Shown: positions 3,141 to 41,413 of the stretch, piece after piece | Layout of the letters: each line of letters starts with the position of its first letter | How positions within the stretch are numbered: the stretch's first letter is position 1 | Origin: Verrucomicrobia bacterium UBA6015 | Lineage (GTDB): Bacteria > Verrucomicrobiota > Kiritimatiellia > UBA8416 | Length of the DNA: 64,000 nt | Assembly (NCBI GenBank): GCA_002428045.1 | Contig: DIZZ01000281.1 | Span: forward strand, 1,634 to 65,633 | Reading direction: 5' to 3' | The notes under the pieces: model-generated | Seen by the model: only the letters and a program-made list of their open reading frames with translations | Told to the model about the DNA's origin: nothing | Database searches by the model: none | Position numbers and translations under genes: made by a program

Positions 3141-3200
3141 GCATCGCAATATATAATGATCGCCACCCCTAGGCAAGGTGATTTCCCGAGAAGATGGCGT

Positions 3201-10186: not shown

Positions 10187-10298
10187 GGAAGACAGTATGC
10201 AACCGCAAAAACAAAAGGCAACCAGATTTTTCACCTGATTTCTTCACGGCATATTGAACGTGCGCAGGCAGACCGATTAAGCGCACAGGACACAAAAC

Positions 10299-20895: not shown

Positions 20896-21044
20896 CGTCG
20901 CCTTTGTCTTTTGCTAGAGCCCTAGTCTGCAAGGTGATAAAAAATTCAAAGAATTGTTGAAGACATCGCCAACGAGAAGCGTATATAGGGTAAGCGTGCC
21001 GATTTTGGCCGTGTTTGTTTCGTTCGCATGAAGGGGAGATCACC

Positions 21045-24000
21045 ATGAAAAAGTCGATTGTGTGTGCGTTGATGCTGCCGTTGTTGTCGTTGCAGGCGGC
21101 CGATGGGAATGACCTGGAGTTCATGGAGGCGTTTGCCTGGGGGGATCGCGCCGCCGCCCTCGCCCAGCTGGTGCCCGATACCGAGGACTATTTTTTCTAC
21201 CATTGCCTGAGCTATCAGCTTGCCGGCAATCGCGACGCCTTCCAGAAGACGTTGGATAAGTGGGTCTCGCGCAACCGCAATCAATGGAACGAGCGGATGA
21301 GCGAGATGCGGCGGCGCCAGATGCTACTTGATATGGATCGCTCGCCCGAGGCGGTCTGGGCGTTTCTCAAGCAGGATGCCGGGCTGTCCTTTTCGCACCG
21401 CGCCCGCCATGAGCAGACCAGCCAGCGCCAGCCTTCGGTCATCAAGCCGGAGCAATACAGCCTGGCCGCCTTCTGGCGGCAGCACGCGAATTCCGAACTC
21501 GATAAACTCACCGATCGCGGGCTTGAACTACTGCCCGATCCGAATGGCAATCCGGATGTTCGCCGGGCTTTCCTGCGCCGTTTGCAGCGTCCGGATTATC
21601 CCGGACTGGTCACGCTGATCCTGGCGGATCTGGACTATAAGGAACAAAACGGCAATATCACGATCTTTGGGCAGATTCCGATCCACAACCAGCTTACGAC
21701 GGATCAGTTGGTAGACCTCGCAACGCAGCGCCCGGCCCTGCTGCGTGAGGCCGACTATGTGAATGCACGGCTGGCGAGGATGCCGCTGCCGGATGCCGAC
21801 CTAGCGAATGATTCCGCCGCTGCCGTGACGTATCTGGAGGGGCTGTGGCGTTTCGTCGGCCCGCTTGAGCCGATGCATAATTCGCTGAAGGCGAATGTGT
21901 TGTATAACATGCTCGCGCATCAGCGTAAACTGGGTGTCTACGATTCCAGCCGATTCCTTGCCTATCTGGAGTTGCCGCGCCATTCCGGTTATATGCAGCG
22001 CGACCGGATGTCGCGCCTGCAACGGGAGCGGGCGATCTGGGTGGATGTGAATTACACCCCCTTCGTGCAAATCAGCCTGCCGCCGATCGGGGACGACGAA
22101 CCACTGGTGCGCGAGTTCCTGATTGAACTGTTGAAGGATGCCGAGGATGCGTCGCGCTTCCAGGACCTCTTCGAGGCCCGCTGGCTGGATGCGGTGTTTG
22201 CCGAGAGCAAGATCCTGCATGGTGTCGGTACCCCGGCGCAATGGTCCTCGCGGCTGGGGCCGGATGCCTACCGATCCCTGTTGGAGCGCATCGAACTGGA
22301 TTTCGCCCCGCAGAATCCCGCCTATTTCAAGCCGGGACAGCCCGTGGAGCTGGCCGTGGACGTGAAGCGGGTGGACAAGCTGCTGGTCAAGGTCTTCGAG
22401 ATCCAGACCTTCAACTACTACACCACCCGGCAGACGGCGATCGACCAGGCCGTGGAGCTGGATGGCATGATCGCCTCGTCTGAGCGCACGGTCGATACGG
22501 TGGCCGAGCCGTCGCGCCGCATGCGGCACCGGATCGCGCTACCGGAAATCAAGACTCGCGGTGTCTATGTCGTCGAGCTGATCGGCAATGGCGTCAGTTC
22601 GCGCGCCCTGCTGTATGTCGGTCACCTTGAGGCCATCAGCCAGGAGACCCCGGCGGGTCTGGCTGTCATGGTCTTGAACGAGGCGGGAGAAACGGTCAAG
22701 GATGCCGCCGTCTGGGTCGATGGGCGCGAGTACAACGCCGGTGACAAGGGCTTGGTGCTGCTGCCGTTCACGGATACCCCGGGTAGCCGCTTCGCCGTGC
22801 TGCGCAGCGGCGATTTCTGCAGTGCGCAGCAGCTCTATTTGCCGGAAGAGGTGTATGCTTTTTCCGCCGGTATCCATCTGGATCCCCAGAACCTGCCGCG
22901 CCAGCATCGGGGTCTGCTGATCCTGCGTCCCGATTTCCGCATCCATGGCATACCGCTTGACCCCGCGCTGCTGGGGGAGGTCAAGGTGACGCTGACCGCT
23001 GTCGATGCCAAGGGCGTCAGCACGGCCCGCGAGTTCAAGGCCACCTTCGCCCGCAACACTGAATGGACGGAATCCTTTTATGTGCCCGATGCCCTGCGCA
23101 GTCTTTCGGTCGCTGTCGAGGCAAAGCTGAAACGCAAGCGGGATCTTGAGGAAATCACCCTGAACGATCAACGGCGCGTGGACCTGAATCCGGCGCGTGG
23201 CGGGGATACACTCAGCCAGGTGTTCCTGGTGCCAGCCGCCGATGGCTGGCGTCTTGAGGTGCGCGGACTGAGCGGCGAGCCGATGGAGGCGGTTCCGTTG
23301 TCCTTGGAGTTGAATCATCCCGGATTCAATCGTTCCGTATCGATCCAGGCCAGCACCGACGCCGACGGCGTGGTTGTCCTGGGGCCGCTGACGGCACTGT
23401 CGCGGATTACCGTCGCAGGGCCGGGGAACTTGCGGCTGGATCGCGTTCTAACAGGGGCGGAAGTGGTATGGCCTGAGTTGCTGCACCTCAAGGCAGGCGA
23501 GATCGTTTCGCTGCCGTACCCGCAAGACCGTCATGTGGATCTTCGTCAGGTTTCGCTATTCAGACAGCGTGGCGAAACGATTTTAGCCGATTGCTCGGCG
23601 TTGGTCACGCTCAAGGATGGGGAGCTGCGGATCGAGGGCATGGAGCCGGGGCAATACCAGCTCGTGTCACATGAGAACGACCGTCGCATCCGGCTGGATG
23701 TTGCCGAGGCCGAGGCAGGCTCCGGGTATCTGCTCGGGAAAACCTCGCGCTGGCAGCAGACGGGTAATCGCCTGCCGTCGGTGGCGGAGGTATCAGAAAA
23801 GGAAGGCACCTTGCGCCTGCGCCTGCGCAACGTGACAACGGGCACCCGTGTCGCGGTACGGGTGGCGCGCTATGTCGATCCGGAATCGGCATTTCCAGAG
23901 GGCTATGGCTTCACCTCGCCGGTCAAGCGCGGCATGCTGCCTCCCTATGCCCAGTATGCCAATGGACGTCGTATCGGCGATGAATACCGCTATGTGCTGG

Positions 24001-27000
24001 AGCGGCGTTCGCTCGAGAAATTCGCAGGCACCCTGCTGGAGCGTCCCGGCCTGATCCTCAATCCATGGGAACTGCGCGAGACCACCACCGAGCAGGAACG
24101 GCTGAAGGGCGATCAGGACTATGCATCCGCACGGCAGGCCATGGCGGATGCCTCCGTCGAAACGGGACTGTCCGTGTATGGGGGGGCGGGTAGCGGAGTC
24201 GGGGGGCGGGGCCAGTCCGTTGACATCGGTTACGACTTCCTGCCGCAGGGCAGTCAATGGGTTCTGAACGCCGTCCCGGACAAGGATGGCGTGGTGACAA
24301 TCCCGCTCGGCGGCGCGCCGGAACATACGATGCTGGATATCGTGGTGCTCGACCGGTTCGGGCTTAGTCAGTTCCGGCATCTGCGTCCTTACCAGACGTT
24401 CACGCCCGTCGATCAACGCCTGCTTAGCGGACTGAAGCCGGATGCGGCCTTCAGTCGTCAAAAGCGCATCCGGTCACTGGCTGCCGGGGAGCAGGTGACT
24501 TTTTCCGATTCTGCGACGACCCGCTACCGAGCCATCACGACGCTGGGCCAGGCCTTCGATCTGCTGCAGGTGCTTAGCGGTAACGCCACCGTGCTGGAGT
24601 TCGCCTTCCTCAAGAACTGGCCCGGTCTGGATGAGGCCGCCAAACGCGAGAAGTACGGCAAGTATGCCTGCCACGAGGTCAACATTTTCCTGTCCCAACA
24701 CGATCCGGACTTCTTCAAACGGGTGATCAAACCCGCCCTGGCCTGCAAGAAGGATAAGACCTTTGTAGACCGCTGGCTGCTGGAGACCCTGACCACCGAG
24801 GATCTTCGGCTGGACCGTTTGCAGCAGCGCAATGCGCTGGAGCTGGCCCTGCTGGCGAAGCGTGGCGGCGATGCCCGCCAGATGCAGGCGGCCCTGCGCG
24901 AGGCGTGGGAGCTGCTGCCCCCCAATCCCGATGCATTTGCCCGGCTTGTACGTACCGCCTTGCAATCGGGCGATCTGGACAAGCCGGTTGACGGTTTTGG
25001 ATCTGCGGAAGACGAAATGATCGTTGAGGAAGCCAAGGACAAGTCGCTGGAGATGAAGAAGTTGGCACTGAGACCGAGTTCGCGTAGGCTGAATGGAGCG
25101 GGTGGATTGACTGAAGCGAGCAAATCAGACGCTGTGCCCATGGAGGAGAGGGACGCGATGATGGCCCCGTCCGCTGCGCCCGCCTCCGAGGCGGCCCTCA
25201 GTTTCGCAATGGCCGAGGCGACAATGGACGTCTCAGAGTCTGAGGGCGCGGATGGCGTGGTCCTGTTTGAAATGACTGCGGATACGTTTGCTGGTGAGGC
25301 GGTCCGCCTGTACCGGGCGTTGCCGCCGACCAAGGAATGGGCCGAGCAGAACTACTACCGTGTGCGGGCCGCAGAGGATCTGCCCGCGCGGCTTTCCGCG
25401 AATGCGTTCTGGCTGGATGTAGCCAGCGGCAAGGCACTGTCCGCGAACCTGCTGGAGGCGCATCGCCATCTGACCGATGTCATCACGGCGCTGGCGTTCT
25501 GTGGCCTGCCGTTCGAGGCGCAGCCCGTGGCCGAGACGACCGGCACGAACGGCCTGACCCTCGCGGCTGCCTCTCCCGTGCTGCTGGTGACGGAGCAGGT
25601 CCTGCCCGCGCCGGTGGCGGCGGATGACCGTCCGCTGCTGATCGCGCAGCAGTTCTTCCGGCCCGATGACCGCTATCGTTTTGAGGGCAACGAGCAGATC
25701 GAGAAATTCATCAGCGGCGAATTCGTGCGGCGCGTGGTGTATGGCGGACGCGTCACACTGACCAATCCCACGGCCTCGCGCCGCGTGCTCAACGTCCTGC
25801 GGCAACTGCCGCTGGGGGCGATCCCGCTACGCAACGGCGTGATGACCGATGATGGCGTGGTGCGGCTGGAACCCTACACCACCGAGAAGATCGAGTATTT
25901 CTTCGTCTTCCCGTTCGCGGGTCAATTCAGCCAGTTCCCGGCCCAGGCGGCCGCTGGCGAAAGTGTGGTCGGCCGGGCCGAGGCACAGGTGTTCAACGTG
26001 GTGAACGAGCCGACCGAGGTGGACAAGACTTCCTGGGCCTGGATCTCTCAATATGCACCGGCCGACGATGTGCTGGCGTTCCTCGGCAAGGAAAACCTGC
26101 GGCGGCTCGATCTCGGTGAGATCGCCTGGCGGCTCAAGGACCGCGGTTTCTTCACAAAGGCCTGCGATCTGCTCGCGTCGCGTGGGCTGTTCCATGACAC
26201 GACCTTCTCGTACAGCGTCCACCACAAGGATGCAGACCGCGCCCGCCTCTGGCTGGCCCGCAGCAGCCTGGCTGGCAGGGTAGGCCTGGTGCTGGAGTCG
26301 CCGTTGCTGAAGGTCGATCCGGTCGAGGCGAAGGTTTATGAGCATCTGGAGTACGATCCGCTGGTCAATCCGCGGGTACACCCCGTCGGCGAAAAGCTCA
26401 AGATCCTCAACACGGCGCTGGATGCCCAGTACCGAGCCTTCCTGAGGACGGCGGCCTACCGGGCGGAATTGCCAGCCAGCCAACGGCTGGCACTGGTGTA
26501 TTACCTGCTGTTGCAGGACCGGCTGGCCGATGGGTTTGCGGAACTGGCGAAGATCAACGACAAGGATCTGCACGAGACGGTGCAGGTGGATTACCTTCGC
26601 GCCTGGGTGGCGCTGCGCCAGCTTGATGTCAAGCGCGCCGCAAAGCTGGCTGAAGCGTACAAGGATTATCCGCTGCCTCGCTGGCAGTCGCGTTTCCGCG
26701 CCCTGACCCAGGCGATTGCCGAAGCGCAGGGGGCGGAGGTCGCCGGGCTGGATGAACCCAACCGCCAGCAGGATCTCGACCAGCAGGCGGAGCAATCGCC
26801 CTCGCTGGACCTTGCGGTGGAAACCGGCAAGCTCTGGCTGACCGCTTATGCGGTGGGCGAGGTGACGCTGAATCTCTACCCGATGGACATCGAGCTCATG
26901 TTCAGCCGCAAACCGTTCCTTTCGGAAGGGGCGACCGATTTCGCGGTGATCCGTCCGGCCTTGTCACAGACGCTCAAGATCAAGGCCAACGGCGAGCCCG

Positions 27001-27371
27001 AGGAGCTGACGCTGCCGGCGGATTACGCCAAACGCAACCTGATGGTGGAAGTCGTGGGCAAGGGACGGCGTGCGGCGACGGCCTGGTACGCCAACCAGTT
27101 GCGGGTGCGCCTGATCCAGGATTACGGGCAGATCGAGGTCCGCTCCGCGGCGGATGGAAAGCCGCTGCCGACGACGTATATCAAGGTCTTTGCACGGGGA
27201 ACGAATGGACGCGAGCAGTTCTGGAAGGATGGCTACACCGATTTGCGCGGACGCTTCGACTACCTGTCCCGCAATGATCGCAAGCCCGAGGAGGCGGTGG
27301 AATTCTCCATCCTCGTCCTGCATCCGGAGCTAGGCGCCGAAATCCAAAACGCCACCCCGCCCGCCCGGTGA
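21045..27371 (+). CDS. Giant secreted protein (2108 aa), function unknown; possibly alpha-2-macroglobulin-like architecture
   Basis: RBS AAGGGGAG and a signal peptide MKKSIVCALMLPLLSLQA. A long beta-rich region with MG-like segments is followed by an alpha-helical module (~res 1650-1900) and a C-terminal beta domain. No CxEQ thioester motif found. Confidence 0.65.
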   Translation: MKKSIVCALMLPLLSLQAADGNDLEFMEAFAWGDRAAALAQLVPDTEDYFFYHCLSYQLAGNRDAFQKTLDKWVSRNRNQWNERMSEMRRRQMLLDMDRSPEAVWAFLKQDAGLSFSHRARHEQTSQRQPSVIKPEQYSLAAFWRQHANSELDKLTDRGLELLPDPNGNPDVRRAFLRRLQRPDYPGLVTLILADLDYKEQNGNITIFGQIPIHNQLTTDQLVDLATQRPALLREADYVNARLARMPLPDADLANDSAAAVTYLEGLWRFVGPLEPMHNSLKANVLYNMLAHQRKLGVYDSSRFLAYLELPRHSGYMQRDRMSRLQRERAIWVDVNYTPFVQISLPPIGDDEPLVREFLIELLKDAEDASRFQDLFEARWLDAVFAESKILHGVGTPAQWSSRLGPDAYRSLLERIELDFAPQNPAYFKPGQPVELAVDVKRVDKLLVKVFEIQTFNYYTTRQTAIDQAVELDGMIASSERTVDTVAEPSRRMRHRIALPEIKTRGVYVVELIGNGVSSRALLYVGHLEAISQETPAGLAVMVLNEAGETVKDAAVWVDGREYNAGDKGLVLLPFTDTPGSRFAVLRSGDFCSAQQLYLPEEVYAFSAGIHLDPQNLPRQHRGLLILRPDFRIHGIPLDPALLGEVKVTLTAVDAKGVSTAREFKATFARNTEWTESFYVPDALRSLSVAVEAKLKRKRDLEEITLNDQRRVDLNPARGGDTLSQVFLVPAADGWRLEVRGLSGEPMEAVPLSLELNHPGFNRSVSIQASTDADGVVVLGPLTALSRITVAGPGNLRLDRVLTGAEVVWPELLHLKAGEIVSLPYPQDRHVDLRQVSLFRQRGETILADCSALVTLKDGELRIEGMEPGQYQLVSHENDRRIRLDVAEAEAGSGYLLGKTSRWQQTGNRLPSVAEVSEKEGTLRLRLRNVTTGTRVAVRVARYVDPESAFPEGYGFTSPVKRGMLPPYAQYANGRRIGDEYRYVLERRSLEKFAGTLLERPGLILNPWELRETTTEQERLKGDQDYASARQAMADASVETGLSVYGGAGSGVGGRGQSVDIGYDFLPQGSQWVLNAVPDKDGVVTIPLGGAPEHTMLDIVVLDRFGLSQFRHLRPYQTFTPVDQRLLSGLKPDAAFSRQKRIRSLAAGEQVTFSDSATTRYRAITTLGQAFDLLQVLSGNATVLEFAFLKNWPGLDEAAKREKYGKYACHEVNIFLSQHDPDFFKRVIKPALACKKDKTFVDRWLLETLTTEDLRLDRLQQRNALELALLAKRGGDARQMQAALREAWELLPPNPDAFARLVRTALQSGDLDKPVDGFGSAEDEMIVEEAKDKSLEMKKLALRPSSRRLNGAGGLTEASKSDAVPMEERDAMMAPSAAPASEAALSFAMAEATMDVSESEGADGVVLFEMTADTFAGEAVRLYRALPPTKEWAEQNYYRVRAAEDLPARLSANAFWLDVASGKALSANLLEAHRHLTDVITALAFCGLPFEAQPVAETTGTNGLTLAAASPVLLVTEQVLPAPVAADDRPLLIAQQFFRPDDRYRFEGNEQIEKFISGEFVRRVVYGGRVTLTNPTASRRVLNVLRQLPLGAIPLRNGVMTDDGVVRLEPYTTEKIEYFFVFPFAGQFSQFPAQAAAGESVVGRAEAQVFNVVNEPTEVDKTSWAWISQYAPADDVLAFLGKENLRRLDLGEIAWRLKDRGFFTKACDLLASRGLFHDTTFSYSVHHKDADRARLWLARSSLAGRVGLVLESPLLKVDPVEAKVYEHLEYDPLVNPRVHPVGEKLKILNTALDAQYRAFLRTAAYRAELPASQRLALVYYLLLQDRLADGFAELAKINDKDLHETVQVDYLRAWVALRQLDVKRAAKLAEAYKDYPLPRWQSRFRALTQAIAEAQGAEVAGLDEPNRQQDLDQQAEQSPSLDLAVETGKLWLTAYAVGEVTLNLYPMDIELMFSRKPFLSEGATDFAVIRPALSQTLKIKANGEPEELTLPADYAKRNLMVEVVGKGRRAATAWYANQLRVRLIQDYGQIEVRSAADGKPLPTTYIKVFARGTNGREQFWKDGYTDLRGRFDYLSRNDRKPEEAVEFSILVLHPELGAEIQNATPPAR

Positions 27372-27571: not shown

Positions 27572-27880
27572 ATGAGTGCCAACATTGAGGATCTTATGGC
27601 CTTGTTGGGCGAGCGGATACGCGAGTTGAGGCTGCGAGAAAATATTGCCCAGACTGTGCTGGCGATGCGGAGTGGTGTTTCACTGAAGGCCGTGAAGAAT
27701 CTGGAAAATGGCACCGGAGCGACCGTTTCTTCATTGCTGCGGGTGTTGCGTACCTTGGGTCGGAACGAGTGGATTGAGACGCTTGGTCCCAAGGTCGGCA
27801 TCAGTCCTATGCAGATGGTGAACCGCAGAAAAACGCGCCTGCGGGCGACACGAAAAAAGACCGGGGTGGCTGATGTATAA
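27572..27880 (+). CDS. hipB: HipB-like XRE-family HTH antitoxin
   Basis: Helix-turn-helix region (IAQTVLAMRSGVSLKAVKNLENG). It overlaps the downstream HipA-like gene by 8 nt. Confidence 0.7.
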   Translation: MSANIEDLMALLGERIRELRLRENIAQTVLAMRSGVSLKAVKNLENGTGATVSSLLRVLRTLGRNEWIETLGPKVGISPMQMVNRRKTRLRATRKKTGVADV

Positions 27881-29144
27881 GCCGGTCAATCTCGTTGAAG
27901 TCTGGATCTGGGGAGCGCGTGTCGGGGCTGTCGCCAAGGATCCGCGAACTGGATTCTATGCGTTTGAATATGATCCCCGATTTGTTCGCACAGGCATTGA
28001 ATTGGCGCCGCTTTTCATGCCGATCCGGAGGGCAAATCAACCGTTTGTTTTTCCGGACTTGCCCGAAGAAAGCTATCATCGCCTCCCGGCGCTCCTTGCC
28101 GATGCGCTGCCGGATTCCTTCGGTAATATCCTGATTGATGCATGGATGGCAGAGCAGGGCATCGAACGGAGTCGGATCAGCGTTCTGGATCGCCTGGCGT
28201 ACATGGGAAAGCGAAGCATGGGCGCACTGGAATTCAAGCCCGTGATCGGACCGAAGGAGAAGACCCCCACCGCGATTGAGCTCTCCTCGCTTGTGGAAAG
28301 CGCACGGAGGGCTGTTTATGGCGACTTAGGAATAGATGCTCGCACGGATGCGGCGTTGCACCAGTTGATGCAGGTGGGCACGTCCGCTGGCGGAGCACGG
28401 GCCAAGGCTGTGATCGGATGGGATCGCAAGAATCGAAAACTCTGCTCCGGGCAGTTCGATGTTCCTGATGGCTTTGAGCACTGGATCATCAAATTCGACG
28501 GTGTCGGGGATACGCCCAATGCGACGCAGGATTCAGGACGGGTGGAACTGGCTTATCACAACATGGCTCGGGCAGCAGGCATTACAATGATGGAGTGCGA
28601 TCTGTTTTGCCATGATGGACGCGCACACTTCATGACCCGGCGGTTCGACCGTGACGGCAACACCAGGCATCATCTGCAGACCCTCTGCGCGATGGCACAT
28701 CTATCTTTTCATCAGCGGGCTGCCTATAGCTATCACCAGCTCTTCGAGACCGTCAATGAGCTCGGGATGGACTACGCCACCCGCGAAGAGGTTTTCCGTC
28801 GCATGGCCTTCAACGTCTTGGCTAGAAATACCGATGACCACAGTAAAAATGTCTCGTTTCTCTTGAAACAGGGTGGGGGGTGGGAGCTTGCGCCCGCATA
28901 TGATCTCACCTACTCCTATACGCAGGTTGGCGAATGGAATGAGTGGGCGAACCCCCGGGTGATGGCAGTCAGCGGGAAATTCTCGAACATCACCGCCAAG
29001 GATCTGCTGGAGGTGGCTGAGCAATTCGGCATCGGAACCGCACGGCGGGAACTGGATCGTGTCATGGATGCTGTCCGTCGCTGGCCGACATTTGCCGACG
29101 CTGCCAGCGTGACAGACGAGAACGTGATACAAGCCCTAATCTAA
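27873..29144 (+). CDS. hipA: HipA-family Ser/Thr kinase toxin
   Basis: HipA N-terminal (VWIWGARVG) and C-terminal kinase regions (HWIIKF...ARNTDDHSKNVSF...YDLTYSY). Confidence 0.8.
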   Translation: MYKPVNLVEVWIWGARVGAVAKDPRTGFYAFEYDPRFVRTGIELAPLFMPIRRANQPFVFPDLPEESYHRLPALLADALPDSFGNILIDAWMAEQGIERSRISVLDRLAYMGKRSMGALEFKPVIGPKEKTPTAIELSSLVESARRAVYGDLGIDARTDAALHQLMQVGTSAGGARAKAVIGWDRKNRKLCSGQFDVPDGFEHWIIKFDGVGDTPNATQDSGRVELAYHNMARAAGITMMECDLFCHDGRAHFMTRRFDRDGNTRHHLQTLCAMAHLSFHQRAAYSYHQLFETVNELGMDYATREEVFRRMAFNVLARNTDDHSKNVSFLLKQGGGWELAPAYDLTYSYTQVGEWNEWANPRVMAVSGKFSNITAKDLLEVAEQFGIGTARRELDRVMDAVRRWPTFADAASVTDENVIQALI

Positions 29145-29361
29145 GTTCACATGCTGTCAAGAGTGTTAAATTAGTATCGATACACCGAGCATTTGTCCGG
29201 TGGAGGCGATGCTTTGCCTGCAACAGATCACAGGCCTCCGAGCTAATATCCCGCGCATCGTGGTTGGCGGCGGCATTGTACGGCCTTAGGAAACAAGGGC
29301 GGGGAGGATATGCCAGACGTCCCGTTGGTTCGTAACTGAAGCATTATATCGGAACTTCAGC

Positions 29362-30603
29362 CTAGATGGCATTCCAGGGGATGGCGGCGGCGTGCGGAGA
29401 GATGGACCAGGCCTCATGTCCGGCGAAAAGGATAACGCCGGGTTGTGCCTGCGGATACGTGGTGCGAAAGGCCTGGATGCCGCGTGTGTCGTGACCGCTG
29501 ACCTGCGTCGATGCCTTAAATTCAATCGGGTACAGTTTGCCGTCCTGCTCCAGCACGGCATCGACCTCCGCCCCGTTCTCCGTGCGCCAGTGCCATAACC
29601 CCGGTGATATCGGAAGACGTGCCAGTTGGCTGCGCAGCCAGCCCACACACCAGGATTCGTAGATTTGTCCGAGCAGGGGACTTGCCAGCAGGCTCTCCGG
29701 CGACGACAGCGTCTGAAGATAGCAGGCGAGTCCCGAGTCCTGGATGTGCCCCTTAGGTTTCATGCTCAGGCGTTTGATGGTATTCCCGCTGTACGCGGGT
29801 AACTCCGTCCACTGGTACGAATGCACCAATAGATCCAGCCAATGGCGTGCCGTTTTGGGGCTGACTCCAATATCCCTGCCGAATTGCGATTGATTAATCT
29901 CGCGTGCCGTCATGGCACCGCATAGGCGGAGGAACCGACCGAACAGTGCCAGATCCGACACATTCCCCATAACGCGCACATCCCGTTCGATATAGGTCTG
30001 GACATACGAGCTGAAGTAGGCGGGAACATCGGCATTATTCTCGAACTCCAGAAGTCCCGGAAGTTGCCCGCGCCAGAGCATTGTGGTGAGCGGAACGGAA
30101 GACGATATCAAGGACCGGTCCTGGCGGGGTTGATTGACGAATTGCGCAGGGTCATGCAAATATTGTCCTAGCCAGCTTTTGACTTGGGCCTGCCCGTGTT
30201 GCTCGGCTAGCGTCATGCCGTCCAGACGCAAAATGCCGACCCGCCCGGCAAGGCTTTCCGATACCGTTCGCAGCACGGCCAGATTTTGCGAACCGCAAAG
30301 ATAATACTGCCCTTTGCGGTCGCTGCCATCGACGCGACGCTTGATCGCCGGCAGCAATTCCGGCGCATATTGGACTTCATCCAGTAGGAGCGGACTGCCA
30401 AATGTATCGAGAAAACGATCGGGATCAGTCCGGGCACCGTAGGGATCCTGTATCGGATCAAAGGTAACACATGTCACCCCTGGCAGAAAATGCTGTAGCA
30501 GCGTGCTTTTGCCAACTTGTCGCGCACCGGCAATCATAATGACTTTAAACAATCGTGCATAACGCGTTAGCAAGACCTCGACATGCCGTTCTAGATATTT
30601 CAT
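29362..30603 (-). CDS. AAA+ ATPase (AAA_14 + DUF4143-type)
   Basis: Walker A IAGARQVGKSTLL and Walker B LLLDEVQ. ~410 aa, typical of DUF4143 ATP-binding proteins. Confidence 0.75.
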   Translation of the reverse strand: MKYLERHVEVLLTRYARLFKVIMIAGARQVGKSTLLQHFLPGVTCVTFDPIQDPYGARTDPDRFLDTFGSPLLLDEVQYAPELLPAIKRRVDGSDRKGQYYLCGSQNLAVLRTVSESLAGRVGILRLDGMTLAEQHGQAQVKSWLGQYLHDPAQFVNQPRQDRSLISSSVPLTTMLWRGQLPGLLEFENNADVPAYFSSYVQTYIERDVRVMGNVSDLALFGRFLRLCGAMTAREINQSQFGRDIGVSPKTARHWLDLLVHSYQWTELPAYSGNTIKRLSMKPKGHIQDSGLACYLQTLSSPESLLASPLLGQIYESWCVGWLRSQLARLPISPGLWHWRTENGAEVDAVLEQDGKLYPIEFKASTQVSGHDTRGIQAFRTTYPQAQPGVILFAGHEAWSISPHAAAIPWNAI

Positions 30604-30666
30604 GTCGACAAATTACCACGATAATTGGGATTATCAAGAATAATATACGTTATTATGCTCAAACAC

Positions 30667-30699
30667 CACTTGCACGCCGACTGACACCTGTGGCAAGGT
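30667..30699 (+). promoter_or_regulatory. Conserved 33-nt element, copy A (CACTTGCACGCCGACTGACACCTGTGGCAAGGT)
   Basis: ~31/35 identical to copy B at 35523..35555. Contains the inverted repeat CTTGC-N19-GCAAG. It lies at the 5' edge of a GC-rich orphan block. Confidence 0.4.
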
Positions 30700-30944
30700 G
30701 AGCGTCAGGATAGGTACGGGGATTATCCAAGTGGGTCGGTGACGGATCCGACGGGGCCACCGAATGGCTCGGGCCGTGTGCTTCGCGGCGGTGGTTGGGG
30801 CGGCGTCGCCGCGAGCTGCCGTGCGGCCTATCGCCTACAACTGCGGCCCGTCGCTCGGGAACTGCGGCCTGGGGTTTCGCGTGGTTCTCGCGGCCCCGGT
30901 TCCATGAGTGTCCATTGAGCTACAGCGCACCGGCGGGCTCGGGG

Positions 30945-34312: not shown

Positions 34313-34621
34313 GCCAATCTTCCTGTCTGAACTTGGTTATCCAGTATTCCCGAACCGATGGCTCACGAAAGGTACAACGCCATGCGTCAGATTGTAAAGT
34401 GAATTCCGATGCCCTTTGACTGTGTGAGTATTCGTCTCACGGGAGTGGCCCGTTCCACCCGCTCCGCAGAGTAATAGCTCGTACCCAAGCGGAATACCAA
34501 GGCCTACACCATGGTTATATTTCACGCAAAGACGCAAAGACGCGAAGGCGCAAAGCTTGCCACCCGCTGCCCAATATGGCATTGTTTGCGTGCGTCTTTA
34601 ATGATACCGGGAAGGGCGGAT

Positions 34622-35494
34622 ATGAATAATCCTATGTTCAGGCCACCTGCAGAGGCAGACAGCGTGATCCTGCAGATCGACGAAGGCTGTCCGTGGAACC
34701 GTTGTACGTTCTGCGGGATGTACAAGGCCATTCCTTTCATGAAACGGTCTCTCGACCAGATCGTATCCATGATTCGCCAGGAGGCAGCGCTTAACGTGGA
34801 CGCTCGGCGGATCTTCCTGGCGGATGGAGACGTGATGCGACGGCCGTTCGATGAGCTTGCCTGCATCCTGCAGTTGCTGGCCGAATCGTTTCCACGCTTG
34901 GCACGGGTCAGTCTTTATGCCAACGGGTCCTCGATCCTGGCGAAATCCGATGTGCAGCTTGCCATGCTTCGCACGCTCAGGCTTCACACGCTTTACATGG
35001 GGCTGGAAAGCGGAGACGACACCATACTCCAGGGCTGCTGCAAGGGCGAAACGGCATCCGCCATGGTCGAGGCTGGAGGGAAAGCCCAGGCCGCAGGGCT
35101 GCGGATGTCCGTCATGATCCTGCTTGGCCTTGGCGGCAGGGCGCGCAGCCGTCAGCATGTCGCCCATACCGCCGACGCCATCAACCAGATGCAACCCCGC
35201 CTTCTCTCGGTATTGCGCGTCATTCCCGTGCCCGGAACCCGACTCTATACAGACACCGCCAATGGCCATTTCGCCATGCCCACGGAATACGAGACGGTGC
35301 AGGAACTACGGGCGCTGGTCGAACAGCTCCAGGTGCATGGAACCGTCTTCAGGGCGAATCACAGCTCCAACATCATCCCGATCGAGGCGCGTTTGCCGCA
35401 AGACAAGCAGACGCTGCTCGCCTCGTTGGACTCCCTCATTGCCTCCGGCATCCTCGACCGGAACAGCCCCGGCCACCTTTCCGCATGGCTCTAA
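34622..35494 (+). CDS. Minimal radical-SAM-like protein with atypical Cx4Cx2C cluster motif (290 aa)
   Basis: DEGCPWNRCTFCGMYK, a GLESGDDTIL 'G-ESG' motif, and ILLGLGG. Start set at MNNPMF (GAAGGG upstream); the ORF continues upstream to 34511. Confidence 0.6.
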   Translation: MNNPMFRPPAEADSVILQIDEGCPWNRCTFCGMYKAIPFMKRSLDQIVSMIRQEAALNVDARRIFLADGDVMRRPFDELACILQLLAESFPRLARVSLYANGSSILAKSDVQLAMLRTLRLHTLYMGLESGDDTILQGCCKGETASAMVEAGGKAQAAGLRMSVMILLGLGGRARSRQHVAHTADAINQMQPRLLSVLRVIPVPGTRLYTDTANGHFAMPTEYETVQELRALVEQLQVHGTVFRANHSSNIIPIEARLPQDKQTLLASLDSLIASGILDRNSPGHLSAWL

Positions 35495-35522
35495 CCCCAT
35501 ATCCGTTATCCGATGCATAAAC

Positions 35523-35555
35523 CGCTTGCGCGCCGCCTGCCACCTGTGGCAAGGT
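35523..35555 (+). promoter_or_regulatory. Conserved 33-nt element, copy B (CGCTTGCGCGCCGCCTGCCACCTGTGGCAAGGT)
   Basis: It ends 7 nt before the ATG of the LPP20/DUF4384 gene. Same CTTGC-N19-GCAAG inverted repeat as copy A. Confidence 0.4.
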
Positions 35556-35562
35556 AGCTGGC

Positions 35563-37104
35563 ATGACAACACGCTCTATAAGCCCCTTTGTAGGCACTTG
35601 TGCAATGTGCCTGTCGACCCTGTTTTGTCTGAACCTGGCCGACTCTGCGTCCGCTCAATCCCTTCCGTCTTGGTATATTGCGCCGCCGGAGGATCCCGCC
35701 CTGGTTACCGGTCGCGGCATGGCTGAGCTCGGGCGGGGGGGTGAAGCGGCCGCCCTGGAGCAGGCCAAGCGCGAAGCCATGCGGGATATGGCGCAGTCGC
35801 TTCTGAGCCGGGTCACCTCCGAGATCATCGACCACCAGGAAGAGCAAGACACTGGCGGCGTGGCGAGTCAGTATGCCAGCCGCACGGTTGTGGAATCCGC
35901 CCTGGAGCTTGTGAATGTACGTACGTTGCATGAGGCCGTTACCAAGGATATGGCGTTTGTGGCGGTGGCGGCGGAACGCGACGGCATGGCCCGCGCCTAC
36001 CGTGAGCGCACCACCCGGCAATTCGACACGGCGGCAGCGGCGTTTGTCCGAGCCGGTGCGTTGGAGGCCGAGAAGAACGCCCGTGACGCCCTGTCCGCCT
36101 ATGAATCCTCCCTGGCGGCCTTGCGCGATGCCCATAGCAGTCTGCAGGTCTATCTGGCGCTTAGCCGCTGGGCCGACCAGCCCCCCGTGCCCTCCACGCT
36201 GCCGGATCCTGCCGATATCCACGTGCGCCTGAAACGCCTGTCGGCATCCACTCCGCGCACGCTCCAGGAGGTCGCCGCCGCCTTGACGACTTCATTGACC
36301 GCCTCCCTGCCGCCCGACGCCCGTCCACAGTCCTGGACCGTCCTGCCGATCGAGTTTGAGCATACGGGGTTTGTGTCCGACTTCGGACATCAGCTTGCCA
36401 GTGTGCTTTCCGCAACCCTGACGTCACATCCAGCCATACGCATGACGGATAATCCGGCCAGTGCCGCCGTTATCGTACGCGGGCGGATGCTGCGGGAGGG
36501 AGAGAGCGTGCTCCTGATCCTGAGCGCCGGCAGCCGGACCATCCAGCATTACATTGAGCCCGTCACCTGCGCCGCGATCGGCAAGGCCAGGATCGAGCCG
36601 CCCGATTTGGATCGACTACTGGCGGACAAGCTCGCATTACACAAGGCCATGCAGGCTCCGTCAGGACTCCGGGTTGAGCTGCGTGCCGACCGTGACGAGC
36701 CTGTCACCTATCGTTTCGGCGACAAACCGAAGCTGGCGGTACGGGCGGACCGGGCCTGTTTCATCCGGCTGGTCTACGTTACGGCTGACGGCCAACGGTT
36801 ACTCCTGAAGGATCGTTACGCCATCGGCGAACACCAGGCCAACCAGTGGGTAACGCTGCCGCTGGACATGGAGGTCTGCGAACCGTCCGGTGTTGAGCAG
36901 ATGCTACTACAGGCTGTTACGCAGGAGGACGATGCCCGCCTTCCGCCGCTGAAGGTCAGGAACGAGCAGGTTGGCGACAGCTACGTCATCCCCGTGATTG
37001 AGGAAACGCTCGACGAAGCCATGACACGAACCCGTGGCATGATGATCAAAAAACAGTCCCACTTCGCCGAAATCGCCAGCCAGTGGACCATCTTCGCGAA
37101 ATAG
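35563..37104 (+). CDS. Secreted protein with LPP20-like N-terminal domain and C-terminal DUF4384-like domain
   Basis: Signal-like N-terminus. The Ala-rich LPP20-like region reads GRGMAELGRGGEAAALEQAKREAMRDMAQSLL. The C-terminal segment VTYRFGDKPKLAVRADRACFIRLVYVTADGQRLLL...WVTLPLDMEVCEPSGVEQMLLQAVT is DUF4384-like. Confidence 0.55.
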   Translation: MTTRSISPFVGTCAMCLSTLFCLNLADSASAQSLPSWYIAPPEDPALVTGRGMAELGRGGEAAALEQAKREAMRDMAQSLLSRVTSEIIDHQEEQDTGGVASQYASRTVVESALELVNVRTLHEAVTKDMAFVAVAAERDGMARAYRERTTRQFDTAAAAFVRAGALEAEKNARDALSAYESSLAALRDAHSSLQVYLALSRWADQPPVPSTLPDPADIHVRLKRLSASTPRTLQEVAAALTTSLTASLPPDARPQSWTVLPIEFEHTGFVSDFGHQLASVLSATLTSHPAIRMTDNPASAAVIVRGRMLREGESVLLILSAGSRTIQHYIEPVTCAAIGKARIEPPDLDRLLADKLALHKAMQAPSGLRVELRADRDEPVTYRFGDKPKLAVRADRACFIRLVYVTADGQRLLLKDRYAIGEHQANQWVTLPLDMEVCEPSGVEQMLLQAVTQEDDARLPPLKVRNEQVGDSYVIPVIEETLDEAMTRTRGMMIKKQSHFAEIASQWTIFAK

Positions 37105-37255
37105 TGAGGTGCCCGCCGAGCTCATTTACTGCCACCGGACCGGAATGCTCCGGTTACGTCATCTCGTGTACGAAGCGCCCAGTTTCGATATCGTCTGCAA
37201 GTGCCGTTCAAAACAATTGCAGAACACCGCCGGTCTGTGGCAATATCCACCCACT

Positions 37256-38932
37256 ATGAAAATATTTAAACCAGTTCTGTTTGTCGTGCCTGCCCTCACC
37301 CTGTGGGCAGCCAGTTTATTCGCCCAGGCCAGCGATACGCGAGGCATGAAGGTGCTGTCTGCAGAACAGAGTGGCGTTGTCGGATATGACCCTGCGCGTT
37401 TTCATGCACTGATTATCGGCATCAATAATTACTCTCGGTGGGCCAAGCTCAGGACAGCCGTCAATGACGCCACGTCCGTGGCAGACGCCTTGGTAGACAA
37501 CTATGGATTCCCCGCAGGTCAGGTGCGGCGCTTATTGGATGAGAATGCCACGCGCCGCAATATCCTGCAGGAACTCGATCGGATTTCCGAGCTCGGGCCT
37601 GAGGATAGCGTGCTGATCTACTATGCGGGGCATGGCTGGATGGATGAACATAGGAACGGGTTCTGGATTCCTGTGGATGCCCCCGAGGACGATAAATTCG
37701 CCTATGTATCCAATGCCCAGGTTGTGCAGGAATACTTCAAGAAATACGCGGTAAGGCACCTGTTGGTGGTATCGGACTCCTGTTTCAGTGGCGCATTGCT
37801 GCGCGGCACGGGGGCTAAGCGGGAAGCCGACTGGAAAATACCGGCTGGTTTTAGGAAACCTTCCCGTTGGGTGATTACCAGTGGCGATCTGGCTCCGGTT
37901 CCAGATGATGCAGGCACGGGGCATAGTCCCTTTGCAACGCGCCTGCTGCAATATCTGCGCTATGGTGATGAGCCCGCGTTCGGTATCTATGACCTATTCA
38001 GTTTTGTCAAACACAACCTGGCGAGCGGTGCCATCTGCGAGCCCTTGGATACGCCGTCACACATGCCGGGGGGTGAATTTGTGCTGGCTCGGCTGGATAC
38101 GTCCATTCCCAAGCCACCACCCGACAAGGTCTTGCCGCCTAATATCGTCCTCGAACCAAAGGTATCCCCCTCCCCAAAGGAGAATACGTCTGCTTCCAGC
38201 AATACGCGAACCATCGATCTTGGGGATGGCATTGAGTTGGCGATGGTCCTTGTGAATGCGGGCCGTTTTGAAATGGGTACGGAGAGCGGGGGCTCTGGTA
38301 ATGAACGCCCGGTGCGAACGGTGCATATCACGCGAGATTTCTGGATGGGGAAGACCGAGGTCACGCAGCGGCAGTGGAAACAGCTTATGGGCAAGAATCC
38401 AAGCCATTTCAAGGGGGATGATTTACCGGTGGAAAAGGTGTCTTGGAATGATTCGGTAAAGTTCTGCGAGGCACTCACCAGGCGAGAGCGGGAGGCGAAC
38501 CGATTGCCACAAGGGGCTGTGTACCGCCTCCCGACAGAGGCGGAGTGGGAATACGCGGCGCGTGGTGGAGGCAAGGGAATGAACACGCTGTATGCAGGCA
38601 GCGATAATCTGGACACCGTGGCATGGCATCGCGGAAACAGCGGACGCAAAACACAGAACGTGGGTACAAAAGCGGCCAACGAGCTGGGCCTTCACGATAT
38701 GAGTGGGAATGTTTTGGAGTGGGTTCATGACAAGTATCAGGACAGCTACAAGGGGCTTGAAACGACAGATCCCAGCGGGCTTCAGAAGTCAGGTTTGGAT
38801 CGTGTGGATCGGGGCGGAAGCTGGGATTCATCGGCGTCGTACTGTCGTGTTGCCTATCGCTGTGGCTGGTTCCCTTCCCGCATGGTCAATACCTTGGGAC
38901 TCCGGGTGGTGCTCGCTGCACCCGTTCAATAA
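37256..38932 (+). CDS. Secreted caspase-like (peptidase C14) domain fused to FGE-sulfatase (SUMF1/formylglycine-generating-enzyme-like) domain
   Basis: Signal peptide MKIFKPVLFVVPALTLWAASLFAQA. Caspase His/Cys dyad context: HALIIGINNY...YYAGHGW...LLVVSDSCFSG. C-terminal FGE domain: WMGKTEVTQRQW...YRLPTEAEWEYAARGG...RGGSWDSSASYCRVAYRC...GLRVV. Confidence 0.75.
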   Translation: MKIFKPVLFVVPALTLWAASLFAQASDTRGMKVLSAEQSGVVGYDPARFHALIIGINNYSRWAKLRTAVNDATSVADALVDNYGFPAGQVRRLLDENATRRNILQELDRISELGPEDSVLIYYAGHGWMDEHRNGFWIPVDAPEDDKFAYVSNAQVVQEYFKKYAVRHLLVVSDSCFSGALLRGTGAKREADWKIPAGFRKPSRWVITSGDLAPVPDDAGTGHSPFATRLLQYLRYGDEPAFGIYDLFSFVKHNLASGAICEPLDTPSHMPGGEFVLARLDTSIPKPPPDKVLPPNIVLEPKVSPSPKENTSASSNTRTIDLGDGIELAMVLVNAGRFEMGTESGGSGNERPVRTVHITRDFWMGKTEVTQRQWKQLMGKNPSHFKGDDLPVEKVSWNDSVKFCEALTRREREANRLPQGAVYRLPTEAEWEYAARGGGKGMNTLYAGSDNLDTVAWHRGNSGRKTQNVGTKAANELGLHDMSGNVLEWVHDKYQDSYKGLETTDPSGLQKSGLDRVDRGGSWDSSASYCRVAYRCGWFPSRMVNTLGLRVVLAAPVQ

Positions 38933-39044
38933 GGGCACGTATTTTCTCGTTGTTTTCCGAGCGCCGTTTCCCTAATATCCATTCCGATTTGAAACCGTTA
39001 TTTTATATGTGCTGATCATTGTCCTTGTTATTGCGACCACGATT

Positions 39045-40238
39045 ATGGGAAAACTACAGGTATTTGTATTTGCTGTCGGCACCTTTATTCACTGCTCTGT
39101 CGCAAATGCCTTGCCACCATCGGCTTCCCCTTCAACGCCAGCAACGTGGTTGATCGAACGGTATCAAAAATTCTTAACCCATTCAAAGGCAAGTACATGT
39201 GGAATGCATCCGTCGTGCTCTGAATACGCTCGAGAGGCGTATTCTGAAGTGCCTCTCTGGAATGCTTCACTGGCGACAGCGGATCGGCTGAATCGCTGTG
39301 GGCACGATAACTTGCAGTACGACTATGCGGATGTATCAGGCGTTTTGAAGAAACTCGATCCGCCACCTGGTTCAACCAACGTGAGCATTCCCCGGATATC
39401 ATCCAACACGGCACCGATTCATCCCGTAGATGTTCATCTTGCCAGCATGAAGAAGGGGTTATCTGAGGATGCGATGGCTCTGGATTTCGCGCGGTACTTG
39501 CACGGTTCGGGAATGCATGAGGAAGCGCTGGTCGAGTACTTGCGTTTTCTCAGGCAATATCCAGACTCAAAGCTGGTGTCATCCGCGCATATCAGCGTGA
39601 TGCATCTTCATTATGAAGTAGGAGACTACCTGATGGCGGTCCGAGGGGCTGAGCAGGCGATGCAAGCCGAACAGATATCGGTTGAAGACATTCCCGAATT
39701 GAAGTTTTGGGTCAGTGCCGCATACGCCCGCCTCGATAACCCCGAAATGGCTCGCCAATCACTGCCCCGTAATGAAGCAGGCCCTGAACTTGCGGCCCGG
39801 GCCAAGCTCCTTGAAGGGTATACCTATGCGCAGCAAGAGGATTGGACGCGAGCCGCTGTGGCGTTTCAAGAATATGGCCTTGTGACGCATGATGAGGCGA
39901 GGGTGAATGACCTGACGGACGTGAGTCGTCAAGCCCTTGCTCGACGAAGGAAAAGCCCAGGCGTTGCCGGGGTATTGGGCATTGTTCCGGGGCTTGGATA
40001 TCTCTATTCAGGCTATCCCGAGTCTGCGGTCAGTGCGCTTATTATTAATTCGCTCCTGGTGTCGGCAAGCTATCAGGCATTCAAGGATGGTAATGAACCG
40101 CTAGGCGCGTTGCTTGGCGTTATCGGGATTGGGTGGTATGCAGGCAGCATTTATGGCTCAGTATCCGCTGCTGAACGTCGGAACGAAAAGGATTTGCGAG
40201 ATACGCTTTTAGAGTTAAAAGTAGGATTTCGCTTTTAA
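39045..40238 (+). CDS. YidD-like (haemolytic domain) N-terminal domain fused to TPR-like region and two C-terminal TM helices
   Basis: IERYQKFLTHSKASTCGMHPSCSEYAREA...RLNRCGHD matches the YidD Cys motif. The helical repeat region is TPR-like, and the hydrophobic C-terminus reads GVLGIVPGLGYLY...LIINSLLVSA. The start could instead be the upstream GTG at 39009. Confidence 0.55.
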   Translation: MGKLQVFVFAVGTFIHCSVANALPPSASPSTPATWLIERYQKFLTHSKASTCGMHPSCSEYAREAYSEVPLWNASLATADRLNRCGHDNLQYDYADVSGVLKKLDPPPGSTNVSIPRISSNTAPIHPVDVHLASMKKGLSEDAMALDFARYLHGSGMHEEALVEYLRFLRQYPDSKLVSSAHISVMHLHYEVGDYLMAVRGAEQAMQAEQISVEDIPELKFWVSAAYARLDNPEMARQSLPRNEAGPELAARAKLLEGYTYAQQEDWTRAAVAFQEYGLVTHDEARVNDLTDVSRQALARRRKSPGVAGVLGIVPGLGYLYSGYPESAVSALIINSLLVSASYQAFKDGNEPLGALLGVIGIGWYAGSIYGSVSAAERRNEKDLRDTLLELKVGFRF

Positions 40239-40282
40239 AAACAGCGTCCTATAGTTGGACGCAAAAGGAAAGGAACAAGACG

Positions 40283-40807
40283 ATGAGAAGAACAAGTCGG
40301 GCAATGAGAATGACGAGCGCGATTACACTGGTTGCATATTTGTGTGCGTTCGGGCCTATACCCGTAGCGCAAGCCGAAGAAAGGATTCCAGTATCGGCGG
40401 GAACATTGGTCATGGTGAGGCCGACTGGCGTCGTTTCGGCGAGCACGAACAAAACCGGGGATACGGTTGAGTTTGTTGTTGTGCAAGACGTGAAAGTGAG
40501 TGATATGGTCGTGATCAAAGCCGGTGCACGTGCCCGCGGTCAAATCGCGTCCGCCCAAAAGGCAGGGTTTCTTGGTATACCTGGCCGGATTTCGGTTGAA
40601 CTCCAGTCTGTCGAAACGGTTGATGGCTCAATGATTCCTGTTCGTGCATCAAAGTCGATGGATGGTGAAGACAAGATTATTATGGCGGTTGTACTGACGT
40701 TGATCTGTCTTCCATTCATCCTGATCAAGGGTGGCAATGCAGAGATGTCTTCGTCCACTACGTTTGATGCGTTCACCCTGGGCACTGCTGACGTAACCAT
40801 CAAGTAA
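40283..40807 (+). CDS. Small secreted/anchored hypothetical protein (174 aa)
   Basis: RBS AAAGGAAAGGAA, a signal peptide ...AFGPIPVAQA, and a C-terminal hydrophobic helix IIMAVVLTLICLPFILI. No recognised family. Confidence 0.5.
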   Translation: MRRTSRAMRMTSAITLVAYLCAFGPIPVAQAEERIPVSAGTLVMVRPTGVVSASTNKTGDTVEFVVVQDVKVSDMVVIKAGARARGQIASAQKAGFLGIPGRISVELQSVETVDGSMIPVRASKSMDGEDKIIMAVVLTLICLPFILIKGGNAEMSSSTTFDAFTLGTADVTIK

Positions 40808-40844
40808 GTGACATCCCTCCGTTTGGGTTCACATTCAATGGTTG

Positions 40845-40879
40845 GGGTTACCCAGTGTAAGCTGGGTAACCCTTTTTTT
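40845..40879 (+). terminator. Rho-independent terminator
   Basis: GGGTTACCCAG-tgtaa-CTGGGTAACCC (perfect 11-bp stem) followed by TTTTTTT, 38 nt after the stop at 40807. Confidence 0.65.
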
Positions 40880-41413
40880 GAAAGACGACGAACGTTGGTC
40901 AATCGGGCATTGACCACTGGTCAAGCCGGGGGGATCGCGGTAGCGGTCGTGGTAGCCATACACGGCTTGGCACAGCTTCAACCCCAAAAAAAGTATCGCG
41001 CTCGCGCCGCTCTGCTCGTATCCGCTTGCGTTCACAGTGAACCGCTAAAGATCTTACCCTCCTTTTTTCGCACGGGACCCAGGGTGGTCGGCTTGCCCGG
41101 AGGTCTTCGCCCTACCTGCCTTTGCATGGCCTCGTTGCTGCATTTTGGATGCTTGAAATGTAGGGTCGGTTGCGTTAGCGTATGACGTCATGAATTTTAT
41201 ACATGACGACTCCGTGCTGGATGGGGAGCAGGCTCGGCAGCAACGCATCGAACAGCAGAAGTCCATTGGGCGGGACTGATTCAGCGAGGGTTGCCAGAGC
41301 CGCATTCGCGCATTACCTGGCACAGGTTGATGTGCTAGGGGATCGTGGATGCCGGTCCGGCTTCCAGAAGCATATCATTCGTTGTGGCTCCTCTAGGTCT
41401 CAAGCGGAAAGGA

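Follow-up and report, generated by a model that had tools for sequence, protein, structure and literature searches.

Exported bacterial orthocaspases are common, and we know of none with a known substrate or partner. Fusions of a caspase-like protease to the fold of the formylglycine-generating enzyme (FGE) were catalogued in 2012 (33 sequences; PMC3501461) and surveyed too by Klemencic et al. 2019 (PMC6426788). Proteins of the LPP20/SHS2 fold serve as periplasmic scaffolds, and DUF4384 has been described as a frequent fusion partner of protease domains and kinases; it is found, too, as a variable domain at the C-terminus of Csx30, which is the substrate of the caspase-like Craspase. YidD in its canonical form stands alone, with about 85 amino acids (aa), is encoded beside yidC and acts with YidC at the cytoplasmic face of the membrane. 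PMC8082313 lists it as a membrane protein insertion efficiency factor (Yu et al. 2011). At the outer membrane, VirB10 barrels project a helical antenna (PMC10706595). Here we describe a locus where relatives of these proteins stand in one row: the four genes g1 to g4, on the forward strand of a 64,000-nucleotide (nt) stretch of Verrucomicrobia bacterium UBA6015 (contig DIZZ01000281.1). This whole stretch is called the window, and its numbering is used throughout.

The first gene, g1, encodes a secreted LPP20/DUF4384 protein and g2 an exported caspase-FGE fusion. They are followed by g3, a YidD-like/TPR/membrane protein, and g4, a small barrel resembling the C-terminal domain of VirB10. We propose that the locus probably consists of two envelope modules of two genes each, which are independent of one another, inherited separately and arranged head to tail: module A (g1 and g2) and module B (g3 and g4). 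The caspase-FGE fusion is already known; no description of its recurrent LPP20/DUF4384 neighbour was met in the literature searched. The g3-g4 pair is the more unusual half of the locus. In the libraries and literature searched, none of the four proteins turned out to have a characterised function, in line with an earlier reading of this DNA made from the sequence alone (hereafter the original prediction).

Gene layout and neighbourhood conservation

Four open reading frames (ORFs) occupy positions 35563-40807. The outer two are simple: g1 (35563-37104) encodes 513 aa and g4 (40283-40807) 174 aa. The frame of g2 (37256-38932) is open from 37109; its start is likely the ATG at 37256, because homologues align only from ORF residue 49, where the signal peptide begins. 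The frame of g3 (39045-40238) is open from a GTG at 39009, and its likely start is the ATG at 39045, which is Met13 of the ORF. Counted from these starts, the intergenic gaps measure about 151 nt (g1-g2), 112 nt (g2-g3) and 44 nt (g3-g4).

An intrinsic-terminator-like hairpin followed by a T-run (40844-40880, forward strand) marks the end of the four-gene array. The hairpin proper spans 40844-40873 and is followed by a T7 tail; its stem, GGGTTACCCAG/CTGGGTAACCC, has 11 perfect base pairs, or 13 with G-T pairs included. It is the sole strong forward-strand terminator of the cluster, with nothing terminator-like between g1, g2, g3 and g4. The original prediction had named both the co-directional genes and the perfect 11-bp stem, and the ORF calls and the hairpin confirm them. 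Its claim that the products are exported is supported as well, since all four look exported: the N-termini of g1 and g4 are signal-peptide-like, also in the alignments of their homologues, g2 carries the signal peptide MKIFKPVLFVVPALTLWAASLFAQA, conserved in five homologues, and g3 read from Met13 begins with the signal-peptide-like MGKLQVFVFAVGTFIHCSVANA.

The neighbourhoods of related genes, at loci numbered L001 onwards, fall into two sets. A g1-like gene and a secreted caspase gene are neighbours in six loci, the window included. In the window and in four further loci, with g1 identities within 34-73%, the caspase-FGE gene lies directly downstream of the g1-like gene; the four are L011 (63% identity to g1), L013 (70%), L012 (48%) and L020 (34%). 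In L021 (29%) a secreted caspase without FGE domain stands two genes upstream of the g1-like gene; the full order there (1588-4899) is the caspase, a 196-aa protein with a C-terminal Phe and the look of a small beta-barrel of the outer membrane, and the g1-like gene.

The second set concerns g3, which has 33 homologues; the few with a named source belong to Nitrospirae, Zixibacteria and Deltaproteobacteria. A g4 homologue lies immediately beside g3, in either order, in seven of eight distinct loci (the window, L001, L002, L005, L006, L007 and L008). The exception is L003/L004, without any g4-like gene. In these two contigs a full-length g3 homologue is accompanied by a separate 140-aa YidD-domain protein and then two TPR/membrane paralogues (L003 1908-4089, L004 1785-3966). 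The pair of L007 (58% and 68% identity) is surrounded by genes for ExbBD and for toxin-antitoxin systems, that of L008 (51% and 59%) lies beside an aldolase gene.

The two pairs recur separately, in different lineages, and the two sets do not meet outside this genome: no caspase, FGE domain or g1-like gene was found in the g3/g4 loci, and neither g3 nor g4 in any g1 locus. Because no locus has both halves except the window and L009, which is a re-assembly of the window locus itself, the four genes make up two modules and not one co-conserved system.

Originally the cluster was taken for one operon whose four products work together as an envelope system for proteolysis or signalling, and the neighbourhood check shows no co-conservation of the four genes. 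We consider a single system unlikely, even with the co-directional genes, the gaps between them, the lone strong terminator after g4 and four products that all look exported. The closest relatives of g3/g4 (L007 and L008, 51-68% identity) have other neighbours, and the closest relative of g1/g2 with downstream sequence (L013) continues with another caspase gene, not g3. The 112-nt gap before g3 is AT-rich and could house a promoter of its own. Co-transcription of all four genes in this genome is plausible, and a single transcript probably covers both modules in this Verrucomicrobiota/Victivallales-like genome.

Several points weigh against the two-module reading, or against the roles that we assign within it. 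Many contigs are short, and only at L001-L008, L013, L018 and L019 can one be sure that the other module is missing within 2-10 kb. Pair A is not obligatory: in L018 and L019, two metagenome-assembled genomes (MAGs) of Victivallales, g1 is followed by convergent ABC transporter genes and there is no caspase. A g4 homologue in a Vampirovibrio sp. MAG (L022 5549-6552, 34% identity) overlaps the end of a gene for a DUF2085 membrane protein and is paired with this gene, not with a g3 homologue. The predicted model of g1 is of low confidence (pLDDT, the predicted local distance difference test, 63), good only at residues ~130-350 and low in the DUF4384 region. Finally, an RRRK ahead of the first C-terminal helix of g3 fits a cytoplasmic TPR region if the N-terminal signal is unused, leaving the topology of g3 ambiguous.

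The exported caspase-FGE protein and its LPP20/DUF4384 neighbour

Both domains of g2 are recognised by Pfam, as the original prediction had it. The caspase domain (nt 37403-38026) matches Peptidase_C14 (PF00656) with 67.6 bits against a cut-off of 21.4 (E 1.7e-18), over profile positions 3-213 of 233; the FGE domain (nt 38240-38911) matches FGE-sulfatase (PF03781) with 166 bits (E 1.5e-48). The His/Cys dyad lies in YYAGHGW and SDSCFSG, and both residues are invariant across five homologues. We read g2 as a caspase-like protease, or orthocaspase, with an intact dyad; as such it would be expected to cut after basic residues. Right after the signal-peptide cleavage site, an invariant Arg-Gly stands in an RG(M/I/L)K(V/M) motif in 5/5 secreted caspases aligned (window ~37337-37351). 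This motif could be a processing or docking site.

A caspase may also suggest an anti-phage or programmed-cell-death conflict system. We find this very improbable for g2: it matches the NCBIfam model 'caspase, EACC1-associated type' weakly (75.7 bits against 140) and a generic PADLOC caspase model, and HipBA and ATPase genes lie 5-8 kb upstream, but its signal peptide puts the protease outside the cytoplasm. Furthermore, the cluster contains no NTPase, EACC1 or other defence component, and PADLOC gives no match for g1, g3 or g4.

The FGE domain itself raises the question of enzymatic activity, and the original prediction had pointed to the cysteine pair of SYCRVAYRC, near the FGE active site. 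The domain was aligned with what we take to be the human FGE sequence. The numbering of the latter agrees with PMC4505483. In human FGE, Cys336 and Cys341 form the active-site pair, and mutation of either strongly affects activity; Cys346 and Cys365 form structural disulfides (PMC4505483). The alignment with the human C-terminus reads RGGSWDSSASYC against KGGSYMCHRSYC: g2 has Ser at the position of Cys336, Ser at that of His337, and Cys only at that of Cys341. The second Cys of SYCRVAYRC is Asn, Phe or Ala in orthologues and is missing even in the orthologue of 70% identity. The proposed pair is not the catalytic one.

The closest solved relatives of the domain are TvpA (2y3c, 5.8e-31) and PorK/GldK; human and bacterial FGE structures match at 1e-10 to 1e-16. 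Because the equivalent of Cys336 is lost, the second Cys is unconserved and the nearest relatives are binding or structural proteins, we conclude that the domain is, as far as its sequence tells, a non-enzymatic binding module and not an enzyme. The earlier picture of a caspase-like protease joined to a ligand-binding module would then stand.

It is highly improbable that the domain works as a formylglycine-generating enzyme, maturing sulfatases or another Cys target and coupled to proteolysis. The strong Pfam match, the presence of a sulfatase gene in the window and the retained equivalent of Cys341 would fit such a role, but the equivalents of Cys336 and His337 are both Ser while both active-site cysteines matter in the human enzyme, the extra Cys is not conserved, and no NCBIfam enzyme model comes near its cut-off for this domain. 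Highly improbable too is a target protein of a diversity-generating retroelement (DGR) with a variable C-type-lectin-fold tip like that of Treponema denticola TvpA, which the best structural match and an orphan 3' fragment of an FGE gene (30718-30907) might suggest: none of the window repeats is paired with the 3' end of g2, the fragment is only ~70% identical to g2 over 61 nt, and no reverse transcriptase is present among the larger window ORFs scanned with Pfam.

This genome seems to hold several copies of the FGE-fold domain. At 59484-60290 a secreted protein of 268 aa is encoded in which the FGE-sulfatase domain stands alone (E 3.8e-48), and the sulfatase gene mentioned above lies at 19333-20895.

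The partner gene g1 is made of a signal peptide, an LPP20/SHS2-like domain (nt 35665-35925), a helical region, an LpoB/Lpp20-like domain and DUF4384 (nt 36706-36912). The original assignment of LPP20 and DUF4384 stays below threshold on g1 taken alone, which scores 18.3 bits against LPP20 (PF02169; gathering score 25.9) and 15.5 bits against DUF4384 (PF14326; cut-off 27, profile positions 1-76 of 81). It finds support at the level of the family: 41 of 50 members match DUF4384 (best 3.4e-12) and 32 of 50 match LPP20 (best 4.4e-10), with a few matching FlgT_N or FlgO. By fold, the predicted model resembles HP1454 (4KZS, E 1.9e-5), Lpp20 (5OK8, probability 1.0) and the C-terminal domain of LpoB (probability 0.99). 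We consider the assignment probably right because of this transitive evidence, namely the profile matches of family members together with the fold matches.

In an exhaustive search the g1 family comprises 394 representative clusters at E<=1e-3, mostly of ~500 aa, with alignments that span the greater part of the protein. A contig profile search of reference genomes found none with g1 alone, and only two Victivallales MAGs, the nearest g1 relatives there, with the g1 alignment. The database gene call for g1 (P0034, 100% match) begins 14 residues downstream of the start of the 513-aa ORF. Among the members of the protein clusters to which P0034 and P0043 (the 100% match of g4) belong, some bear the name of a Verrucomicrobia MAG. 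In L015, L016, L017 and L019 the g1 orthologue is split in two frames at the same point (residue 415/417); it is intact in L018. L019 is a Victivallales MAG and the other three are metagenome contigs. The split, seen in four separate assemblies, may reflect a true frameshift or pseudogene, or else an artefact common to the assemblies.

We can now sketch how module A may work. The orthocaspase g2, exported by the Sec route, would act in the periplasm, and its FGE-fold domain would bind ligands or proteins so as to select or position periplasmic targets. The product of g1 would be a dedicated partner of the protease, most likely a scaffold or regulator, or else a substrate. Such a role fits because DUF4384 is often fused to proteases and kinases and occurs in Csx30, and because LPP20/SHS2-fold proteins are periplasmic scaffolds. 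In the literature searched, no paper mentions LPP20 and DUF4384 together, and we met no description of the g1 family as a caspase partner. With its family of at least 394 clusters, the recurrent g1 neighbour is a concrete candidate for a scaffold, regulator or substrate of exported orthocaspases.

The YidD-like/TPR protein and the VirB10-like barrel

Near its N-terminus g3 carries the YidD-like domain that the original prediction had recognised by its cysteine motif (nt 39144-39305). It matches PF01809 with 45.8 bits against a gathering score of 27 (5e-12) and TIGR00278 with 46.1 against 40; the TPR matches that follow are weak. The motif reads CGMHPSCSEY...RCGHD, and its residues C64, C70, C97 and H99 vary little or not at all across 21 homologues. 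The C-terminal region holds three moderately hydrophobic helices (~nt 39960-40172) and is highly conserved: in the same 21 homologues, its glycine-rich stretch PGLGYLYxG...GWYxGxIYGS is invariant or nearly so. Such conservation suggests that the membrane part has a function beyond anchoring the protein.

In most full-length g3 homologues the N-terminus is a signal peptide of the SPase-I (signal peptidase I) type, and the YidD-like domain and TPRs of g3 are therefore predicted to be extracytoplasmic, unlike canonical YidD. Pfam scans of the genes flanking g3 gave no YidC match, and a literature search covering YidD returned nothing on YidD-TPR fusions. A relation of the g3 membrane domain to the DUF2085 protein found next to one g4 homologue was also considered and ruled out (hhalign probability 0.1).

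The product of g4 is an exported protein with a beta-barrel fold like that of the VirB10 C-terminal domain. It has no sequence-family match at all: there is none in Pfam even at E 10, and none between the g4 family profile and the PDB sequences at the same threshold. Originally g4 had been described as a small anchored protein. Its hydrophobic stretch, IIMAVVLTLICLPFILIKGG, is 20 residues long (nt 40673-40732) and is an insert within the barrel; it is not a terminal anchor. Two conserved barrel strands follow it. Remote homologues keep these strands and lack the insert. The insert may occupy a position equivalent to that of the VirB10 antenna. No genes of a type IV secretion system (T4SS) were found among the Pfam-annotated neighbours in the window or in L001-L008.

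For module B we propose that the YidD-like domain and TPR part of g3 would be exported and held in the inner membrane by the three-helix C-terminal domain, presumably inserted there. The TPR part may then organise oligomers of g4 at the membrane surface, by analogy with the BamD and CpoB scaffolds and with the VirB10 rings of the T4SS.

A bolder version, to which we give some small chance, is that the pair forms an unrecognised module independent of any T4SS: a miniature VirB10-like barrel, its membrane ring formed by the insert, would be organised by a TPR protein with an extracytoplasmic YidD-like domain, and in this genome the module may couple to the caspase and its LPP20/DUF4384 partner. 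If this ring reading is true, the YidD fold gains a periplasmic, membrane-active role. Returning to the two separately inherited modules that we favour, the recurrence of a VirB10-like barrel outside a secretion system, next to an exported YidD-like/TPR protein, asks whether the YidD fold is only a cytoplasmic insertion helper. It also raises the possibility that VirB10-type barrels are reused as stand-alone envelope parts.

Surrounding DNA and comparison with known systems

Just upstream of g1 lies one of two copies of a 57-nt repeat (family D7; 35499-35555, forward strand), 77% identical to the other copy at 30643-30699 on the same strand, which falls outside the interval covered by the original prediction. 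The core of the g1-proximal copy (35522-35555) is the 33-nt element that had been noticed there. As claimed, its 3' end is 7 nt before the g1 ATG; it includes the palindrome TGCCAC-CT-GTGGCA. The description of this element as conserved does not hold: it has one further copy only in the 64-kb window, within the other repeat (77% over 57 nt), and the repeat was not found upstream of g1 in any other g1-homologue locus.

Three roles for the repeat were considered and rejected. As a conserved operator the repeat would be expected at the other g1-homologue loci, where it is missing. Nor is a structured RNA, or a riboswitch of a known kind, supported, with no Rfam match in the window and fold z-scores of +0.58 and -0.05, no better than shuffled sequence. 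A sigma-54 promoter has the wrong -24/-12 spacing in a by-eye comparison with the consensus. A genome-specific regulatory site is possible.

The other copy sits between a divergent AAA_14/DUF4143 ATPase gene and the remnant of an FGE-sulfatase-domain gene (30718-30907, forward strand). In three-frame translation this frameshifted remnant, the C-terminal ~60 residues of such a protein, reads ...GDYPSGSVTDPTG..RVLRGGGW..CRAAYR and then shifts frame to ..LGFRVVLAAPVP, ending at a stop codon. It has 68% DNA identity with the 3' end of the FGE gene at 59484-60290. The simplest reading is that the orphan repeat and the remnant are the decayed relic of a paralogous locus, left from its duplicated or rearranged 5' region and its 3' end. 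Directly upstream of the orphan repeat are a HipB/HipA toxin-antitoxin pair and the AAA_14/DUF4143 ATPase gene (27572-30603), which may be mobile or accessory DNA marking the point of rearrangement.

A 9-mer, CTGTGGCAA, occurs in the repeat before g1 (35544-35552), before g2 (37235-37243) and in the orphan repeat (30688-30696); it precedes the start codons of g1 and g2 by 10-12 nt. The window holds 4 matches against 0.47 expected, a count reached in 1 of 100 shuffles. The 9-mer was not found at the orthologous loci and could be a genome-specific regulatory or translation-initiation motif.

The genes around the cluster are ordinary chromosomal ones: hybrid histidine kinase, radical SAM, DAGK, mreB, PBP2, rodA, RNase G, LptD and sulfatase. 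Neither the radical-SAM gene directly upstream (34511-35494) nor the downstream DAGK/EEP genes are kept beside homologues of g1-g4, and both lie outside the feature. Elsewhere in the window, two paralogous AAA-ATPase_like + PDDEXK_9 genes (1431-3176 and 8471-10234) have an identical 20-mer in common (repeat D11). There are also giant ORFs, one at 11486-16753 (1755 aa) with internal degenerate repeats of families D1-D6, and one at 21015-27371 (2118 aa) without Pfam match on record.

Compared with known systems, module A is closest to the surveyed caspase-FGE fusions. It has the same order of Peptidase_C14 and FGE-sulfatase, an intact His/Cys dyad and an N-terminal hydrophobic segment interpreted as a signal peptide. 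The surveys reported no conserved LPP20/DUF4384 partner gene, whereas here a g1-like gene recurs in the six loci described above. The C-terminal domain of g2 has its closest solved relatives in PorK/GldK of the type IX secretion system (T9SS) and in the DGR protein TvpA of T. denticola, which are non-enzymatic uses of the fold in the periplasm or at the surface; unlike them, g2 has no T9SS or DGR context, and its domain is fused to a protease.

For g1, the nearest described proteins are Lpp20 (HP1456, 5OK8) and HP1454 (4KZS) of the Helicobacter pylori lpp20 operon and the SHS2-like scaffolds FlgP and FlgT. The g1 model matches HP1454 and Lpp20 in fold, members of the g1 family match the LPP20, FlgT_N and FlgO profiles, and all are secreted or periplasmic. 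However, g1 lacks a lipobox, is far larger at 513 aa, and adds the helical region and the C-terminal DUF4384. Its linkage is to a caspase and not to genes for flagella or of the Lpp20 operon.

On the side of module B, g4 resembles the C-terminal domains of VirB10, TraF, ComB10 and CagY of the T4SS in its barrel fold. It differs in having no sequence-level similarity to them, no N-terminal inner-membrane anchor and no proline-rich region, and its insert has only ~20 residues; the VirB7, VirB9 and VirB4 genes of VirB10 systems are absent near g4. Finally, g3 is like YidD in that its domain passes both the Pfam and TIGR00278 cut-offs and keeps the pattern Cys...PxCSxY...RCxH. In contrast to YidD, it is a protein of ~400 aa that begins with a signal peptide, joins the YidD-like domain to TPRs and a conserved membrane domain, and is paired with a VirB10-like protein.

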